In this document: in pieces, positions 12,023-32,681 of the stretch
Layout: every line of letters begins with the position of its first letter
How positions within the stretch are numbered: the stretch's first letter is position 1
Assembly (NCBI RefSeq): GCF_016026235.1
Contig: NZ_CP065613.1
Origin: Escherichia coli
Lineage (GTDB): Bacteria > Pseudomonadota > Gammaproteobacteria > Enterobacterales > Enterobacteriaceae
Reading direction: 5' to 3' (one strand)
DNA: 64,000 nucleotides
Notes under the pieces: model-generated
The model's database searches: none
The model's input: only the letters and a program-made list of their open reading frames with translations
Told to the model about the DNA's origin: nothing
Made by a program: the position numbers and the translations under genes

Positions 12023-12312
12023 TGGTGGATTTACTTAAAGCGGCGCGGGGGCAGATGTGCACCGTCAGAATTCCTGGCTACTGCAATCACGATCCGGAAA
12101 CGTCTGTGCTGGCGCATTACCGACTGGCGGGAACGTGCGGAACAGCGATAAAGCCACACGATATGCAGGCAGCGATTGCCTGTAGCTCGTGCCACGATTT
12201 AATCGACGGGCGGGTAAAAACCAGCGATTACACCAAAGAAGAATTACGCCTGATGCATGCAGAAGGTGTTTTTCGCACACAAGAAATCTGGAGAAAGGAG
12301 GGATATTTATGA
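12022..12312 (+). CDS. YbcO-like (DUF1364) putative zinc-binding nuclease
   Basis: 96 aa; Cys/His-rich CNHD...CSSCHDLIDG; size/position match lambdoid nin-region YbcO. Confidence 0.55.
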   Translation: MVDLLKAARGQMCTVRIPGYCNHDPETSVLAHYRLAGTCGTAIKPHDMQAAIACSSCHDLIDGRVKTSDYTKEELRLMHAEGVFRTQEIWRKEGYL

Positions 12313-12863
12313 TTTACCCAACGAATACAGGAAAAAGCGGAGAACACCTTCGTCTCACCACGCTGGAAAGTGTCTGGATTCAGGGAAAACTACGTATGTG
12401 GGGGCGCTGGTCGTATATTGGTGGCGGTAAGACGGGGAATATGTTTAACCTGATGTTGACCTCTAAAAAGCTGACAAAAACGGCAATTAACGAGGCGCTC
12501 CGGAGGATGAAAAAAGCAGGTCTGAACAAGTCTGAACTTGAGGCTTTTTTGCGGGATATGATTAACGGTAAGCAAAAGAGCTGGCTGGCGCATTGTACTG
12601 ATGCAGAGGCGTTATGTATTGATCGGGTCATAAGTGAGGTGCTGGCAGAGCATCCAGGATTGATTAGCGTCCTTCGGCAACGGTATGAGGGGCGGGGGAT
12701 GACCAAACGCAAAATGGCTGAACTGCTGAATGATGCACACCCGAAATGGAGTTTAAGAACCTGTGAAAGACGCATTGAGCATTGGCTAAAGGTGGCAGAA
12801 TTTATTTTGTACAAACCAATGGTTATGGCTTTTGGTATAGAGAAAAAAGTTATTGCTTTTTGA
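12309..12863 (+). CDS. Late-gene antiterminator Q-like protein
   Basis: 184 aa from ATG 12309 overlapping previous stop; last early gene before terminator, tRNAs and lysis genes. Confidence 0.55.
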   Translation: MIYPTNTGKSGEHLRLTTLESVWIQGKLRMWGRWSYIGGGKTGNMFNLMLTSKKLTKTAINEALRRMKKAGLNKSELEAFLRDMINGKQKSWLAHCTDAEALCIDRVISEVLAEHPGLISVLRQRYEGRGMTKRKMAELLNDAHPKWSLRTCERRIEHWLKVAEFILYKPMVMAFGIEKKVIAF

Positions 12864-13052: not shown

Positions 13053-13129
13053 GGCCCTTTAGCTCAGTTGGTCAGAGCGAGCGACTCATAATCGCCAGGT
13101 CGCTGGTTCAAGTCCAGCAAGGGCCACCA
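13053..13129 (+). tRNA. tRNA-Ile2 (anticodon CAU; could also be read as Met)
   Basis: Hand-folded cloverleaf; anticodon loop ctCATaa; close to E. coli ileX-type from memory; ends CCA. Confidence 0.8.
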
Positions 13130-13130
13130 A

Positions 13131-13207
13131 CCACCACTAGCTCATCCGGATAGAGCATCAACCTTCTAAGTTGACGGTGCGAGGTTCGAGTCCTCGGTGG
13201 TGGGCCA
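13131..13207 (+). tRNA. tRNA-Arg (anticodon UCU)
   Basis: Acceptor ccaccac/gtggtgg, anticodon loop ctTCTaa, T-arm ggttcgagtcc, 3' GCCA. Confidence 0.75.
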
Positions 13208-13209
13208 GC

Positions 13210-13285
<76 letters not shown>

Positions 13286-13288
13286 TAT

Positions 13289-13363
<75 letters not shown>

Positions 13364-15310: not shown

Positions 15311-15823
15311 TTAGCTAAAAAAAGGCAACACGAAGCTAAAACTACCAACATAAAGTGCTGACCAGCTAGCAGCTGAAATCAGACTCACTGTATACACTTT
15401 CACTGGATGAAGTTGCAACATTCCTGCCACCAAAGGAGCAATATAACGCAGCACGGCGATAAAGCGCGAAGTGAAAAGTATTGACACAGAGTTATTTTGC
15501 AACTGAAGGCGAACCCGTTCTATTGTATTGGAACGGCTCGATATTATACATGCAAGTTGAGGGATATGCCCAATTATTATACCAAGATGGTAATTAACGA
15601 TAGTACCGCACCATGCGCCACTCATGACCGTGATTCCAGCTTCCCATGGTGAAAGAGTCGTCTTGCTGACTGTAATTACAGTGGCCATCATAATTGATGC
15701 TGGTGGCAATATCGCCGAAATGAGTAAAGTGGATTTTGTGAACGCTATTATAAAAAGAAGCCCCCATAGGCGATATGGATGAAGTACAAAATAGTTCATC
15801 AAAGCATTTATCCACTCCATCAA
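15311..15823 (-). CDS. Polytopic inner-membrane protein (family uncertain)
   Basis: 170 aa with several hydrophobic helices; oppositely oriented between lysis and terminase genes. Confidence 0.45.
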   Translation of the reverse strand: MMEWINALMNYFVLHPYRLWGLLFIIAFTKSTLLISAILPPASIMMATVITVSKTTLSPWEAGITVMSGAWCGTIVNYHLGIIIGHIPQLACIISSRSNTIERVRLQLQNNSVSILFTSRFIAVLRYIAPLVAGMLQLHPVKVYTVSLISAASWSALYVGSFSFVLPFFS

Positions 15824-27079: not shown

Positions 27080-27276
27080 CCTTCAATAGCCTGCCGGGTG
27101 GTGAAGATTTTATTCTTCGTCCGGCGCTTGCCTTCCATATTGACCAGAAAGATCTTAACAGTGGTGCGGTAGATCTCTGTCGCATCGCGCTTCTTAATGA
27201 CTACCTTGATATGTGCGAGGACAACGATGTCCGGGTAGAAAAATGGAGAGAGGATAATGAACGCCGAGACTATTAA
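27028..27276 (+). other. Candidate programmed -1 frameshift: slippery T_TTT_TTG (27028-27034) plus -1 frame extension to 27276
   Basis: aaT TTT TTG in chaperone frame; -1 frame stays open ~80 codons to TAA 27274-27276, overlapping tape-measure start. Confidence 0.5.
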
Positions 27277-29209
27277 AGATTTCCTCGTCTCGCTTGGCTT
27301 CAGTGTGGATGATGCAGGAGCGAAAAAGTTCGGTTCTGTCCTCGCCGGTACAACTGCAAATGTCATCAAAATGGGGCTGGCTGTTGAAGGAGCTGCGCTG
27401 TCCGTGGTGGCCTTCACGGCTAAGATCGCCTCCGGTCTGGATAATCTTTACTGGGCGTCACAGCGCACCGGCGCGACAGTCCAGGGAATTCAGTCTATTG
27501 GCTATGCGGTTTCGCAGGTTGGCGGCAGCGTGGACGCTGCGCGATCTTCTCTGGAAAGCCTCTCCCGGTTTATTCGTAACAATCCCGGTGCAGAAGGCTT
27601 TCTGAATCGCCTGGGCGTACAGACCCGTGATGCCAGCGGTAACATGCGTGACATGGCCGCTATTTTTACTGGTGTAGGCCAGAAGCTCAGCGGTATGCCG
27701 TATTACCGGGCTAACCAGTATGCGCAGATGCTGGGCATTGACGAAAATACCCTTATGGCTATGCGTCGCGGAGTGGGGCAGTTCAGCGCTCAGTATTCAG
27801 AAATGGTGAAAGCGATCGGATTTAATGCCGATCAGGCTGCCTTATCGTCAAACCGGTTTATGACCTCGCTGAAATCGCTCGGTGAAATGGCCGGGATGGC
27901 GCGGGACAAAATCGGATCGAATCTTGCGGACGGACTGGCGGGGCAGATTGATAACCTGCGCAAAAAGATAATTGAAAATTTTCCCAAAATTGAAGTCACC
28001 ATCACAAAGGTCATAAAGGGGATCCTCTGGCTGGGTGAGATAGTCGGGCGGGGTGCATTCCGGATAGTCGATGGTGTCGGAGATATCATCGAGTGGTGGG
28101 GGAAACTGGATGCCGAAACGAAAACCCTGATAGAGGTTATCGGCGGTCTGGTTGTCGCCATGCGGATACTTAACTCTACTTTCTGGATGTCACCTATAGG
28201 GCTGATTACCGGTCTGATCGTGGCTCTCGGTCTCTTGTGGGAAGACTACAAAACATGGAAAGAAGGCGGTAACAGTCTTATCGACTGGGAAAAATGGCAA
28301 CCAGCAATAGATAAAGCGAAGGATGCGATCACCTGGCTTCGTGATCACCTTCTGGAACTAAAAGATGGTGTTGGCGGCTGGCAAAATGCACTGGAAATCC
28401 TCGGTACATTCATCGCGGGTGTCTGGGTATCCAAGGTTCTGGGGGCTTTCGGGAAAATATCAGGTTTGCTGGTCCCGCCGTGGTTAAAAGGCTGGATGGC
28501 TTATGCTGCGTATTTGTACTCTGATCGCGAAAATATTGGTGCCAGTGCGAAGTCATCCTGGGATTACACGAAACAAAATATTGGAGGTTCATTGCGCTGG
28601 CTTGGCATTGATACCGATTTTGGTCGTAATCCTCATACCGTAAAAGGCGCAAATATTCAGTCAGATATTCCAGGTGCTGAGCCGGAACAACATGCGCAGT
28701 CTACGAAGCGTACTTTAGCCGATCGGAATAACAATCCAGGGAATATTCGCCCGGTGAGCGGTAAAGGGTTCCGGTTTTTCGAATCAGCTCTTGAGGGCTG
28801 GGAGGCGATGAAAAACCAGCTCATGCGTTACTTTACTGGGAAAACAACCGGACGGGCATTACAGACTATTCAGGATATTGTCAGTACCTGGGCCCCGGCA
28901 GGTGATAACAACGATCCGAAAAAGTATGCACAGGATGTTGCGAAATGGATGGGAGTATCACCGAATGCAATATTGAATCTTACAGATCCCCGGACTATGG
29001 GAGCATTGATGCAGTCGATGGCGCGCAAAGAAGGTTATTCAAACTGGAACAGCCCGCTGGCGTATCAGGCCGCCGCTGGCAACCTTAACCAGCAGACTGT
29101 TATAAATGTTCATGGAGTTAACAACCCTCAGGAGGCGGCTAATCTGATCGCTGACAAGCAGGGGGCTGTAAATGCCAGGGCGGTACAGCAATTGAAAGGA
29201 CCTGCGTAA
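27257..29209 (+). CDS. Tail tape measure protein
   Basis: 650 aa; Gly/Ala-rich hydrophobic central segments. Confidence 0.7.
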   Translation: MNAETIKDFLVSLGFSVDDAGAKKFGSVLAGTTANVIKMGLAVEGAALSVVAFTAKIASGLDNLYWASQRTGATVQGIQSIGYAVSQVGGSVDAARSSLESLSRFIRNNPGAEGFLNRLGVQTRDASGNMRDMAAIFTGVGQKLSGMPYYRANQYAQMLGIDENTLMAMRRGVGQFSAQYSEMVKAIGFNADQAALSSNRFMTSLKSLGEMAGMARDKIGSNLADGLAGQIDNLRKKIIENFPKIEVTITKVIKGILWLGEIVGRGAFRIVDGVGDIIEWWGKLDAETKTLIEVIGGLVVAMRILNSTFWMSPIGLITGLIVALGLLWEDYKTWKEGGNSLIDWEKWQPAIDKAKDAITWLRDHLLELKDGVGGWQNALEILGTFIAGVWVSKVLGAFGKISGLLVPPWLKGWMAYAAYLYSDRENIGASAKSSWDYTKQNIGGSLRWLGIDTDFGRNPHTVKGANIQSDIPGAEPEQHAQSTKRTLADRNNNPGNIRPVSGKGFRFFESALEGWEAMKNQLMRYFTGKTTGRALQTIQDIVSTWAPAGDNNDPKKYAQDVAKWMGVSPNAILNLTDPRTMGALMQSMARKEGYSNWNSPLAYQAAAGNLNQQTVINVHGVNNPQEAANLIADKQGAVNARAVQQLKGPA

Positions 29210-29859
29210 TGGACTTTTTATCTGTTTTACTGCAGCAGCGAACCCGCTCAATAGGAATCATTATTCCTGATGTGGTTATTACCGAAAAGCACACTGACGC
29301 CTTGGAAATTACGGAACATCCGGTTGAACAGCCCACGAATGCTGGTGCCAGTGGTGAGGGCGCTGGTTACATATCAGAACACGCATTCAGGCGCCCTTCT
29401 GAGGTTGTGATGGAAACCGGTTTTTCCGGAGGCGGATCGCTGCTTGATTTTGCCAGTAACCTGACTGCTACCAGTTTACTGGGGCTGAGCCCGAAAGAAC
29501 TGTATCAGGAACTGCTTAACTTGCAGCGGAATCGTATTCCTTTCGATGTGACAACCGGCAAGCGTATTTACAACAATATGTTGATAAAAACGCTGGAGGT
29601 CACGACCGATAAGAGTAGTGAAAATGTGCTTCTGGCGACACTTACCCTCAGGGAAGTAATTATTACCTCCACGCAGTCAGTCAGGGTTGCCCCGAAAAAC
29701 AATATGACCGAGGGAGTCGGAACGTCTGCTGTGCAGAATACAGGCACCAAAACAACGGTGCCGCCGAATAATTCCATTCTGAAATCGCTGCCACAGATGG
29801 CGCAAGAAGGTATCTCCACTGTTGATGGGTATTTGAGCAATTTATTTCTGGGAAGGTGA
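29209..29859 (+). CDS. Tail/baseplate assembly protein
   Basis: 216 aa; start overlaps tape-measure stop. Confidence 0.5.
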   Translation: MDFLSVLLQQRTRSIGIIIPDVVITEKHTDALEITEHPVEQPTNAGASGEGAGYISEHAFRRPSEVVMETGFSGGGSLLDFASNLTATSLLGLSPKELYQELLNLQRNRIPFDVTTGKRIYNNMLIKTLEVTTDKSSENVLLATLTLREVIITSTQSVRVAPKNNMTEGVGTSAVQNTGTKTTVPPNNSILKSLPQMAQEGISTVDGYLSNLFLGR

Positions 29860-29862
29860 TTC

Positions 29863-30165
29863 ATGAAAGCCGTAGAAATCCCACTGGTTGCTGACAATCA
29901 GACTTTTGCCACCACAATTAACGGTTCGGTTTATCACCTGTCTGTCATCTGGCGAGGCGAGTGCTGGGTTCTGGATCTTGCTGACAGCAATGGCTCCGCC
30001 ATTATATCAGGTATACCGATGATTACGGGGGCTGACCTGCTGGCACAGTATCGATATATGGATCTGGGTTTTTCTCTGGTGGTGCTCTGCGACGTGGCAG
30101 GGCAGGAGAATCCGACGCAATTCGATCTTGGAACGCTCTCACACCTCTATGTTTTCACGGAGTAA
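29863..30165 (+). CDS. Tail protein, hypothetical
   Basis: 100 aa ORF. Confidence 0.45.
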   Translation: MKAVEIPLVADNQTFATTINGSVYHLSVIWRGECWVLDLADSNGSAIISGIPMITGADLLAQYRYMDLGFSLVVLCDVAGQENPTQFDLGTLSHLYVFTE

Positions 30166-30167
30166 CA

Positions 30168-31208
30168 ATGTCGAAAAACTGGATGCGTCACTTTGAATTA
30201 TTGCTTGTTGATGATAAGGGCGACGGGATAAAAATTTCTGAGCTTAAAGTCACTTTCAATATTCAGAAAATGCCTGCGACCATATTTAATGGATTTGTTG
30301 GAAATTTTAAGGTTTATAACCTGTCTCCTACCACTCAGAACCGGATTATGCAGAAGGAGTTTTCGCGTATACAGGTTATTGCCGGATACAAGGGGCAACC
30401 GGATGCAGCAGGTAATTATCCTGATGAAAACGTTGGTATGATATTCAATGGAGATATCCGTTTTACTGTCACTGGTAAAGATAATGCCACAGACAGTTGG
30501 ATCATGTTGCAGTGTATTGACAGCTGGGAAGGCCACCTGAACGCAAGTGTGAAAACCACAGTGGCTGCTGGCTGGAAGTACAGCGATCTTTTCAGTCTGG
30601 GTATGAAATCATTCGAACCATATGGCATCGAATCCGGTGCAGTTCCTGACATGCCTGAAACGGTATTTCCCCGAGGTCGCGTTGTTTATCAAAACACATC
30701 AAGGTTGATGAATCATATCGCAGGGCAGTGTAAAGCTAACTGGTGGTATGAAAATAATCTGGTAAATATTGTTCCTGAAGATAAATATATTGGTGTTGCT
30801 ACGGTGTTGAATGCTAACACCGGGCTTATCAGTATGCCACAGCAGACGATGGGAGCTGGCGTAAATGTCAGATGTCTGATTAATCCAAATATTAAGCTCG
30901 GTGGGCTTATTCGTCTGGATCAGGCATCTGTATACCGTGCCTCTTTGAGTAATGACCAGGTAGCGAAATCGCCAGCACGACTGGATGAGTCTGAAAGCGA
31001 CGGTAATCTCTACGTTAACGGTCTGCCAGGCATGTCACAGCCTGCCAGCATTAATACTGACGGTGATTACATTGTGGGCAGCATTGATTATACTGGCGAC
31101 ACCCGAGGGCAGGCGTGGTATATGGACCTGCTTTGCCTGGCTAAAGGGAGTAAAAGTTTACTCACTCCTGATACGATAGCGAAAATAAGTGGGGTACCAA
31201 ATGCTTAA
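30168..31208 (+). CDS. Baseplate hub-like protein
   Basis: 346 aa ORF in baseplate module. Confidence 0.5.
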   Translation: MSKNWMRHFELLLVDDKGDGIKISELKVTFNIQKMPATIFNGFVGNFKVYNLSPTTQNRIMQKEFSRIQVIAGYKGQPDAAGNYPDENVGMIFNGDIRFTVTGKDNATDSWIMLQCIDSWEGHLNASVKTTVAAGWKYSDLFSLGMKSFEPYGIESGAVPDMPETVFPRGRVVYQNTSRLMNHIAGQCKANWWYENNLVNIVPEDKYIGVATVLNANTGLISMPQQTMGAGVNVRCLINPNIKLGGLIRLDQASVYRASLSNDQVAKSPARLDESESDGNLYVNGLPGMSQPASINTDGDYIVGSIDYTGDTRGQAWYMDLLCLAKGSKSLLTPDTIAKISGVPNA

Positions 31209-31443
31209 ATGGATCTTATTACTGGTATATTTTGTGACTTTGTCTTCTGTGGCTGCGGTAACATGCACCACTTCAAATACAGGAACAACTTACTGTACTG
31301 GTACAGACAGTAGTGGTTCTACAGTTAAAACAGAATCTTATACAACCAATACAGGTACTACGTATACCACAGGAACGATTAATGGGAGTGCAGTACATCG
31401 TGAATGCCAGGCGACCAATACTGGCACAACGTACTGTAATTAA
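31201..31443 (+). CDS. Small secreted Thr/Gly-rich repeat protein (moron candidate)
   Basis: ~80 aa from ATG 31201; hydrophobic signal-like N-terminus; three NTGTTY(C/T) repeats with Cys. Confidence 0.45.
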   Translation: MLKWILLLVYFVTLSSVAAVTCTTSNTGTTYCTGTDSSGSTVKTESYTTNTGTTYTTGTINGSAVHRECQATNTGTTYCN

Positions 31444-31478
31444 TTTTTTTAAGAAATCAGCTATAAGAGACATTTGTA

Positions 31479-31820
31479 ATGAAGAAAATATTCCTTCTCG
31501 CAGTGTTGACTCCAACAATTTGTGTAGGTGGAACGCTGAATGATTTTTTTGGACTGCACACCTCACTGGCTGATAACTACATCATCAAGAGAGAGATCAC
31601 AAATAGGGCTGTTTCTAATGCGGCTATGGACGCTGTATCTAATGGTCGTGAGGCGGATTTTGGTGATGAGTTAATGAAAGAACATGGTGATAGTTATGGT
31701 GAAATAGCTCTGCGTCAACTCGCTTTCGAGTGCGGTTATTCTTTTTCCGATAGTGGCCAATCTCTTACGATTCTAAAAAAAGAAGAATGTAGATTGGTGC
31801 TATCTGAAAATAAGAAATGA
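31479..31820 (+). CDS. Small secreted/lipoprotein-like protein (moron candidate)
   Basis: 113 aa; N-terminal signal-like MKKIFLLAVLTPTICVGG; followed by terminator. Confidence 0.45.
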   Translation: MKKIFLLAVLTPTICVGGTLNDFFGLHTSLADNYIIKREITNRAVSNAAMDAVSNGREADFGDELMKEHGDSYGEIALRQLAFECGYSFSDSGQSLTILKKEECRLVLSENKK

Positions 31821-31885
31821 GTTCGCTAAATTAACTTTTCACGGTAATTGCTTCTATCACCATGGAAAGAAAACTAGCTACATAA

Positions 31886-31910
31886 AACCCGCCTTCGAGT
31901 GGGTTTTTTG
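31886..31910 (+). terminator. Intrinsic terminator
   Basis: aacccgc...gtgggtt hairpin followed by TTTTTT. Confidence 0.45.
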
Positions 31911-31928
31911 CTTTCTGGAGGCATATGA

Positions 31929-32681
31929 ATGCCAGTTTCTTTAAGCGCTCAACTTGGTAGCAAAGAACAGGCCGATGTAAGACTTGCTGGCTCTGTCATG
32001 TCGGCGCTGCGTGTTTCTATGCCCGGCATCGTCCAGTCATTTGATCCGGACACGGTAACGGTAGTTGTTCAACCAGCGATTAAAGGCTATGAGCCAGACT
32101 CAAATGGAATCAACCAGTCGACGACATTACCCTTGCTGGTGGATGTGCCAGTGGTATTCCCGCGCGGCGGAGGCTGTACGTTGACTTTTCCGGTAAAAGC
32201 CGGGGATGAGTGTCTTGTCGTTTTTGCCGATCGTTGTATTGATTTCTGGTGGCAGAGTGGCGGGATACAGGAGCCGGTTGATGACAGAATGCATGATTTA
32301 TCGGATGCGTTTTGTATTGTAGGTCCCCAGTCGCAGGCGAGGAAGATTAGCGGTATTAATACCAGTGCCACACAGTTGCGTAGTGACGACGGCAGTACCT
32401 ATTTTGAGCTTAATCCTGATACCAGGAAAATTAAAATTGTCGCTCCGGGTGGTCTTGATGTGGTTGCCCCTCTGGCTGATTTTTCTGAGAAAGTAACCAT
32501 TCATGGCCTGTTAACCTGGATGGGTGGCATGGTGGGGTCTGTTGTTTCTGGTGTGGCTTCAAAAATCACTGGTGCTGTTGAGTTTTTGGGTAGCGTGAAG
32601 GCTAACGGCAAGCCAATCGATGATACGCACACTCATGGTGGTGTTCAGCGCGGTGGAAGCAATACCGACGGAGTAAACTGA
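31929..32681 (+). CDS. Baseplate spike/gpV-like protein
   Basis: 250 aa; Gly-rich C-terminus; precedes gpW-like and J-like genes. Confidence 0.5.
   Translation: MPVSLSAQLGSKEQADVRLAGSVMSALRVSMPGIVQSFDPDTVTVVVQPAIKGYEPDSNGINQSTTLPLLVDVPVVFPRGGGCTLTFPVKAGDECLVVFADRCIDFWWQSGGIQEPVDDRMHDLSDAFCIVGPQSQARKISGINTSATQLRSDDGSTYFELNPDTRKIKIVAPGGLDVVAPLADFSEKVTIHGLLTWMGGMVGSVVSGVASKITGAVEFLGSVKANGKPIDDTHTHGGVQRGGSNTDGVN

Follow-up and report, generated by a model that had tools for sequence, protein, structure and literature searches.

Why two small genes should sit in the middle of a baseplate gene series, what they encode and whether they belong together are the questions raised by the interval between the baseplate hub gene and the membrane-puncturing spike gene of a lambdoid-regulated prophage of the E. 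coli/Shigella type with a contractile-tail structural module, carried on a 64-kb stretch of Escherichia coli DNA (contig NZ_CP065613.1; this whole stretch is called the window below). The hub gene (346 aa, 30168-31208, + strand) matches phrog_196 (E = 7e-79) and its homologues carry Pfam E217_GP41, while the spike gene (250 aa, 31929-32681, +) takes its name from the RefSeq annotation of an identical gene and from Pfam PF18352 and Apex on its homologues. Between them lie open reading frame 1 (ORF1; 80 aa, 31201-31443, +) and, 35 nt further on, ORF2 (113 aa, 31479-31820, +). A sequence-only reading had taken the pair for an autonomous cassette of secreted-protein genes that interrupts the baseplate series and ends with its own terminator. 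We describe here the anatomy and variability of this interval, the coding status and independence of its two genes and the conserved terminator behind them. The hub-spike interval is very probably a two-slot cargo locus with exported-protein genes, and ORF1 is a rare alternative to the usual protein of about 111 aa, of the STY1065/STY2022 type, in its first slot.

The case for such a locus lies in the comparison of relatives, for which we surveyed 39 related loci (38 genome matches plus fetched contigs); across them, the hub-spike interval ranges from 78 to 2595 bp. A hub allele at least 95% identical to that of the window is found in 51 of 5426 complete E. coli genomes, and only 6 of these 51 carry the ORF1-ORF2 block. 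Among the E. coli relatives, the hub gene is 98-99% identical and the flank running from the terminator to the spike gene 94-98% identical, and homology ends at 31147 to resume at 31886 (blastn breakpoints against L002-L006), leaving a variable cargo block of 738 bp (31148-31885, +). The hub gene is the left anchor of this variable locus, with its last 20 or so codons (from 31148) already inside the block, and the spike gene is the right anchor. E. coli prophages with 97-99% identity in hub and spike have an altogether different set of genes between the two, which bears out the earlier view that both genes interrupt the baseplate series as accessory cargo and are not conserved structural components. 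A comparison of base composition with the neighbours, suggested by the same reading, put the GC content at third codon positions (GC3) at 0.30 in ORF1 and 0.34 in ORF2, compared with 0.515 in twelve structural genes, and the windowed GC of the block at 0.37-0.42 against about 0.5 in its flanks. Between the window and a Salmonella prophage, synonymous divergence (dS) amounts to 0.09 and 0.23 for the ORF1/ORF2 cassette as against 0.53 for the hub gene, and we conclude that the cargo moved between phages more recently than the backbones diverged. Both genes may well have arrived by recombination between conserved anchors, namely the 3' end of the hub gene on one side and the terminator with the spike ribosome-binding site on the other. 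Isolates from bovine mastitis and from food carry the block as well, as does Salmonella; the block's DNA and proteins found no match among 50,697 phage records, and it is known only from prophages.

Slot 1 is the position next to the hub gene, with whose stop codon it overlaps in most cases, and nearly always encodes a small protein predicted to be Sec-exported; slot 2 receives interchangeable cargo. In about 26 of the 39 loci slot 1 is of the STY1065 type (STY1065/STY2022 is an NCBIfam name; phrog_3443). In the close E. coli relatives this signal-peptide protein of ~111 aa overlaps the hub stop and is followed by variable cargo, be it a DUF4282 gene, a Phd/Doc toxin-antitoxin pair, a pair of 266 and 126 aa or a reverse-strand gene; slot 2 cargo further includes Mrr-type restriction nuclease (Mrr_cat), T5orf172, P22-type antirepressor, tRNA_anti-like and DUF2335 domains. 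The ORF1 type occupies slot 1 in the window and in L007, L009, L011 and L012, with more family members outside the 39-locus survey, in Salmonella and metagenome contigs (L054, from Salmonella, and L057 among them). The remaining slot 1 occupants are a 154-aa signal-peptide protein and lipoprotein fusions, and slot 1 is empty in at least one locus, L046, where the interval measures 78 bp. A literature search on STY1065/STY2022 returned no relevant paper, and a STY1065-type protein gave nothing significant against Pfam, NCBIfam and PADLOC.

Some features of the cargo stand apart from the window itself. A slot 2 pair of genes, one for about 243-266 aa and the other for 123-165 aa, neither assigned to a family, recurs in L002, L009, L023, L031, L038 and L039 and is a candidate two-component system. 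In Salmonella enterica (L054 2223-3832), ORF1, uncalled by the gene caller, is stacked with ORF2 and a Phd/Doc (Fic) pair, so that cargo adds up. An N-terminal lipoprotein domain is fused to a STY1065-type domain in L023 (5575-6441) and to an ORF2-type domain in P0017, and is found again in the 379-aa slot 1 lipoprotein of L020 (5568-6707); in these fusions the small exported domains behave as interchangeable modules.

Do ORF1 and ORF2 form one unit, as had been assumed? The ORF2 type accompanies the STY1065 type in Pantoea and Rosenbergiella and the ORF1 type in E. coli, Salmonella and Trabulsiella, with a third gene between the two in Trabulsiella, and Yokenella carries ORF1 alone, without ORF2. 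These differing combinations mean that ORF1 and ORF2 assort independently, and the idea of a single unit has to be abandoned. How one slot 1 gene gives way to another can be seen in Hafnia psychrotolerans (L012 5532-5894), where the final ~38 codons of a STY1065-type gene (...NVEVVRVNMDEPRQFWTYDCVKVK) persist downstream of an ORF1-family gene, a remnant which is direct evidence of slot 1 replacement; unlike in Hafnia, no STY1065-type remnant was found in the window. Remote homology between ORF1 and the STY1065 type was considered and rejected, a 25-member hidden Markov model giving ORF1 5.0 bits and blastp similarity being confined to the signal peptide.

Whether ORF1 is a gene at all deserves attention, since the Prokaryotic Genome Annotation Pipeline (PGAP) calls none at its position in the E. 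coli RefSeq records covered (VL40, BCE049 and FDAARGOS_943), and a collection of 15 billion proteins does not contain its exact sequence. The ATG of ORF1 overlaps the end of the hub gene, stop codon included, by 8 nt. Its predicted signal peptide (residues 1-19, 31201-31257) reads MLKWILLLVYFVTLSSVAA, and VTC follows the predicted cleavage point as the start of a mature part of 61 aa. The Thr/Gly-rich character, signal-like N-terminus and three NTGTTY(C/T) repeats reported before are all there: Thr makes up 28.8% of the protein, Gly 8.8% and Ser 10%, and 22 of the 61 mature residues are Thr, while the repeats are encoded by 22-nt copies at 31276-31297, 31348-31369 and 31417-31438 (+), which are only 68-86% identical as DNA, so that the repeat is preserved at the protein level. 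The mature part contains two Cys-x9-Cys loops, C22-C32 and C69-C79. Homologues of 77-81 aa, with 43-93% identity, come from Yokenella, Cronobacter, Trabulsiella, Hafnia, Salmonella and metagenomes; the four cysteines C22, C32, C69 and C79 are invariant across them and two C-x4-TGTT-x-C loops are conserved. For distant homologue pairs, the ratio of the proportions of nonsynonymous and synonymous differences (pN/pS) in the mature part is 0.26-0.43, with pN of 0.21-0.34 and a saturated pS of 0.70-0.91. Against the Salmonella copy, the corresponding rate ratio dN/dS of the mature part is 0.24; in the signal peptide dN (0.177) exceeds dS (0.085), as is expected of a segment in which only hydrophobicity must be kept (L012, whose signal peptide differs by one residue in length, is excluded from the ungapped dN/dS). 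Judged from these substitution patterns, selection on ORF1 is purifying, and together with homologues at the same position and invariant cysteines this makes ORF1 a real gene missed by annotation. Pfam, NCBIfam, PHROGs and the Protein Data Bank (PDB) contain nothing that matches the family. The best AlphaFold 2 (AF2) model (predicted local distance difference test, pLDDT, 72) is a six-strand beta-meander, in which both Cys pairs lie on adjacent hairpin strands, repeats 1 and 3 lie at a beta-hairpin turn and its second strand, and repeat 2 falls inside a strand.

ORF2, the slot 2 cargo of the window, is of another build; like ORF1 it is a real gene under purifying selection. The signal peptide ascribed to this 113-aa protein by the sequence-only reading is again found, on heuristic grounds, in a hydrophobic N-terminus ending in a small-x-small motif; residues 1-18 are the predicted signal peptide and about 95 aa remain in the mature part. 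ORF2 aligns with phrog_13007 from end to end (E = 1.9e-38, 132 bits, residues 1-113 against positions 1-116 of a 116-position profile), a family that carries no functional annotation, and it has no Pfam, NCBIfam, PADLOC or PDB match. Its close homologues are from E. coli, Shigella boydii, Salmonella and Pantoea, its exact sequence being present in E. coli O28ac and Shigella boydii records, and a profile search of 1.8 billion representatives yielded 43 family members (cluster representatives). Each of these begins with a hydrophobic stretch that ends in small-x-small and leads into a mature start T/S-L-D/E-D-F-F, and the Cys85/Cys104 pair is nearly invariant. Remote members sit in phage tail or baseplate regions, some of them fused to other periplasmic domains. 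The AF2 model (pLDDT 86.7) is all-helical, with four to five helices and a disordered N-terminal stretch of 19 residues. Membership of the LprI/DUF1311 class (PF07007) was tried and rejected, Pfam giving no match to ORF2 even at E <= 10, nor to any of 36 family members. One structural neighbour of ORF2 in the AlphaFold database bears an automatic 'LprI N-terminal domain' label, and the 'FDCSKA...' N-terminal domain of some fusions to the ORF2 domain has an LprI/DUF1311-like look; no Pfam LprI domain was detected in any of these fusions, and the resemblance is a weak lead only.

Signal peptides were judged by hydrophobicity, by small-x-small motifs kept across divergent N-termini and by the low confidence of AF2 for residues 1-19. 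On the Kyte-Doolittle scale the best mean over 10 residues reaches 2.9 in ORF1 and 2.2 in ORF2, and each has Lys or Arg within its first 8 residues. The cleavage motifs, VAA before V in ORF1 and VGG before T in ORF2, are conserved in kind across 14 and 36 homologues, the N-termini being otherwise divergent. No lipobox of the form [LVI][ASTVI][GAS]C is present in the ORF1 family, in which the cysteine is preceded by A/S/G-V/I-T/E/S, i.e., by Thr, Glu or Ser at -1; in ORF2 the lipobox is likewise lacking, and the cysteine of its signal peptide is not conserved in the family. Both products are accordingly best described as predicted small Sec-exported proteins with putative disulfides.

The right boundary of the cargo locus is an intrinsic terminator (31884-31913, +) made of a hairpin of 9 pairs (31884-31907) and a T-run. 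The hairpin folds at -12.7 kcal/mol (z = -3.9), none of 200 shuffles folding as well, and the terminator is contiguous with the ribosome-binding site of the spike gene (GGAGG, 31917-31921, +), whose start codon is at 31929-31931. Whatever the cargo, 36 of the 39 loci have an ACCCGC-loop-GCGGGT hairpin with a T-run no more than 160 nt ahead of the spike start, and its stem variants keep pairing (GGCCGC/GTGGCC, GCCGC/GCGGT, CCCCG/CGGGG). In the alignment there is no homology upstream of the hairpin, and then hairpin, T-run, GGAG and ATG are conserved. Relatives that carry other cargo are again homologous to the window from 31886 onwards, which places the hairpin in the conserved right flank, and the terminator that had been assigned to the cassette is in fact the property of the locus. 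It is the only strong intergenic terminator of the 20-kb structural operon besides one at the fibre end. The autonomy of the cassette fares no better: ORF1 overlaps the hub stop, the gap between ORF1 and ORF2 is short, and the lone promoter-like site, at 31066-31094 inside the hub gene, matches 9 of 12 consensus positions, one such site being found where shuffled sequences lead one to expect 3.1. ORF1 and ORF2 are probably co-transcribed with the hub gene. A Q-like antiterminator gene upstream of the tRNAs and lysis genes (~12309-12863, +; phrog_753, E = 1.8e-79) implies antiterminated late transcription in this prophage, which might thus pass the terminator and enter the spike gene, whereas transcription that is not antiterminated would stop at the hairpin ahead of it.

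What might such proteins do? Slot 1 would here provide, in the place of a STY1065-type protein to which it is not homologous, a mature Thr-rich beta-hairpin protein stapled by two disulfides, and slot 2 a helical periplasmic protein with a conserved Cys pair. It is tempting to suppose that the site of action of both is the periplasm or envelope, whether of a lysogen or of an infected cell, where they would interfere with incoming phages. By analogy with other phage proteins, we tentatively favour superinfection exclusion at the envelope or tail-tip stage, and we do so at somewhat less than even confidence, on the strength of precedents in which small envelope proteins encoded in tail regions or close to them, such as HK97 gp15, T4 Spackle and T5 Llp, block infection. 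The explanation as a whole, which blends the description of cargo slots and exported products with an exclusion function, seems to us evenly poised. Several points tell against it: the signal-peptide calls are heuristic only; the four other AF2 models of ORF1 reach a pLDDT of only 54-58, leaving its fold at moderate confidence; and the translational coupling of ORF1 to the hub gene suggests late expression. No convincing promoter was found for the block either, so that expression in the lysogen, the state in which exclusion usually matters, is putative.

These last points lead to the account that best withstands scrutiny among the alternatives, which nevertheless strikes us as rather unlikely, namely that ORF1 and ORF2 are not exclusion proteins but are expressed late and help the phage's own lytic cycle from the periplasm, for example as modulators of peptidoglycan hydrolases (the lytic-transglycosylase domain of the tape measure or host enzymes), adjusters of lysis or protectors of progeny from debris. 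Co-translation with late genes is indicated by the overlap of ORF1 with the hub stop and by the overlap of slot 1 and slot 2 genes with each other in relatives, and the lack of a detected promoter fits the same scheme. Slot 1 is filled in nearly all relatives, as would suit a function tied to the tail module; yet its occupants are non-homologous and it is empty in L046, so that no single essential function is conserved. The tape-measure protein of related prophages is annotated as, or matches, a lytic-transglycosylase (SLT) domain, and ScwA, a periplasmic LprI-domain protein, alters lytic-transglycosylase levels in Salmonella (PMC7933661), which would lend interest to the LprI label on the structural neighbour of ORF2. 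Against this, Pfam finds no LprI domain in ORF2 or in its 36 family members, and neither product is similar to known lysis or inhibitor proteins.

It is improbable that the two genes are cargo for lysogenic conversion or virulence, with effects on the animal host or the bacterial surface in the manner of Lom and Bor. It is true that the same prophage carries an IpaH E3 ligase gene (38760-40586), that ORF2 recurs unchanged in the O28ac and Shigella boydii records and that both products are predicted envelope or periplasm proteins. However, the block is found in bovine-mastitis and food isolates and in Salmonella too, family members occur in prophages of Pantoea, Rosenbergiella, Hafnia, Yokenella and Trabulsiella, neither protein resembles adhesins, serum-resistance proteins or effectors, and an outer-membrane anchor is missing, there being no lipobox and no beta-barrel. 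Very improbable, in turn, is a role as small, poorly conserved structural or assembly components of the baseplate, for which the location in mid-series on the same strand might plead: virion assembly in the cytoplasm cannot be squared with predicted Sec signal peptides and conserved disulfide Cys pairs, the codon composition is foreign, and both genes are missing from prophages with near-identical hub and spike. Finally, the notion that ORF1 is a chance open reading frame in a spacer and ORF2 the sole gene, as the RefSeq annotation with its three records without a gene call has it and as low-complexity sequence might lead one to think, can be dismissed as scarcely credible in view of 77-81-aa frames at the same position in several genera, with 43-60% identity and invariant Cys spacing, and of synonymous sites that are saturated while pN and the mature dN/dS against Salmonella stay low.

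Within the exclusion hypothesis, a bolder version can be formulated, though we think it unlikely: slot 1 could be a dedicated position for periplasmic immunity, whose hub-coupled exported protein would neutralise the tail-tip apparatus of incoming relatives, be it their spike, their hub or the domain of the tape measure that cuts the cell wall. If this were so, an arms race would have replaced one non-homologous solution by another (STY1065 type, ORF1 type, lipoprotein fusions), ORF1 would found a new class of disulfide-stapled beta-hairpin exclusion peptides, and ORF2 would add a second, stackable layer. Should slot 1 proteins target the tail tip, they would offer simple reagents for studying how contractile-tail phages pass through the periplasm. 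Apart from these conjectures, the work delimits a hot-spot of recombination that stretches from the hub 3' end to the conserved terminator and spike ribosome-binding site in a myovirus-type prophage family, one that is widespread in Enterobacterales; the locus gathers toxin-antitoxin, nuclease and envelope-protein cargo and is therefore useful for mining genes of phage-phage competition. What is new is the small ORF1 family, missed by RefSeq annotation in E. coli, and a clearly delimited cargo locus of two slots with a conserved terminator as its boundary.

The remainder of the prophage offers a few observations of its own. The baseplate series upstream of the hub consists of the tape measure (27257-29209), a baseplate protein (29209-29859) and the plug (29863-30165), and the genes for the sheath initiator, baseplate J, wedge and fibres lie 3' of the spike gene. 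Just past the tail-fibre end, the IpaH-family gene (minus strand; NF046045, E = 4e-170) encodes a type III secretion effector E3 ubiquitin ligase. Strain VL40 carries the same prophage beside the bio operon, with IS150 inside its tape-measure gene and IS2 inside baseplate J, both genes being intact in the window; in FDAARGOS_943 (L050 1561-3268) the ORF1 region holds two copies of IS1. Between the lysis genes and the terminase, a 170-aa reverse-strand frame (15311-15823, -) agrees in position and size with a 'DedA family protein' of VL40 and is probably another accessory insertion. The prophage tRNA cluster (13053-13363) comprises CAU, Arg-UCU, Thr-UGU and Gly-UCC, of which the tRNA-Thr reads ACA; this codon accounts for 10 of 23 Thr codons in ORF1 against 50 of 286 in the structural genes, which may be coincidental.

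How, then, does the block compare with what is known? A search of the PADLOC-DB 2.0 defence models returned nothing for ORF2 and a chance-level Cas5d match only (E = 0.043) for ORF1. ORF2 is a full-length member of phrog_13007, from which no difference could be identified. The STY1065/STY2022 family shares with ORF1 its place directly after the hub gene, usually with overlap of the stop, a signal peptide and cysteines near the mature N-terminus and the C-terminus; it differs in being about 30 residues longer, not Thr-rich and without detectable homology to ORF1. Among characterised proteins, Spackle of phage T4, a helical periplasmic protein of 75 aa with a disulfide bond, inhibits the gp5 tail lysozyme (PMC7677548). 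ORF2, too, is small, all-helical in its model and predicted to be periplasmic with a disulfide pair, and neither sequence nor fold similarity to the Spackle family was found. Llp of phage T5 is a small envelope protein encoded near tail genes that blocks the receptor (PMC9586334). ORF1 resembles Llp, and Cor of phi80 and N15, in size (about 61 mature residues), in predicted envelope location and in its tail-region position; Llp and Cor, however, are lipoproteins, whereas the ORF1 family has no lipobox, and there is no sequence similarity. In fold and disulfides, as predicted for ORF1, a comparison with Llp can also be drawn.

The closest parallel is with the morons represented by gene 15 of HK97, whose product gp15, encoded by a moron in the tail operon, is an inner-membrane protein that prevents entry of the genome, its effect depending on the tail (PMC3594210). 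The differences are plain enough: no promoter of its own was found for the block, ORF1 is translationally coupled to the hub gene, and ORF1 and ORF2 are predicted to be cleaved, soluble periplasmic proteins and not YebO-like inner-membrane proteins, with no sequence similarity to gp15. Of the marks of a moron in the Hendrix/Juhala sense, the absence from relatives and the deviant base composition are found here, and a terminator of its own is not, the terminator belonging to the locus and not to the insert. What the two have in common are one or more extra genes between tail genes, missing from close relatives and deviant in base composition, with a terminator at the end and a small product directed, by prediction in the case of the block, to the envelope. 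On present evidence the block is an ordinary moron-type accessory locus, and so belongs to a known kind, that of accessory genes in a tail operon.

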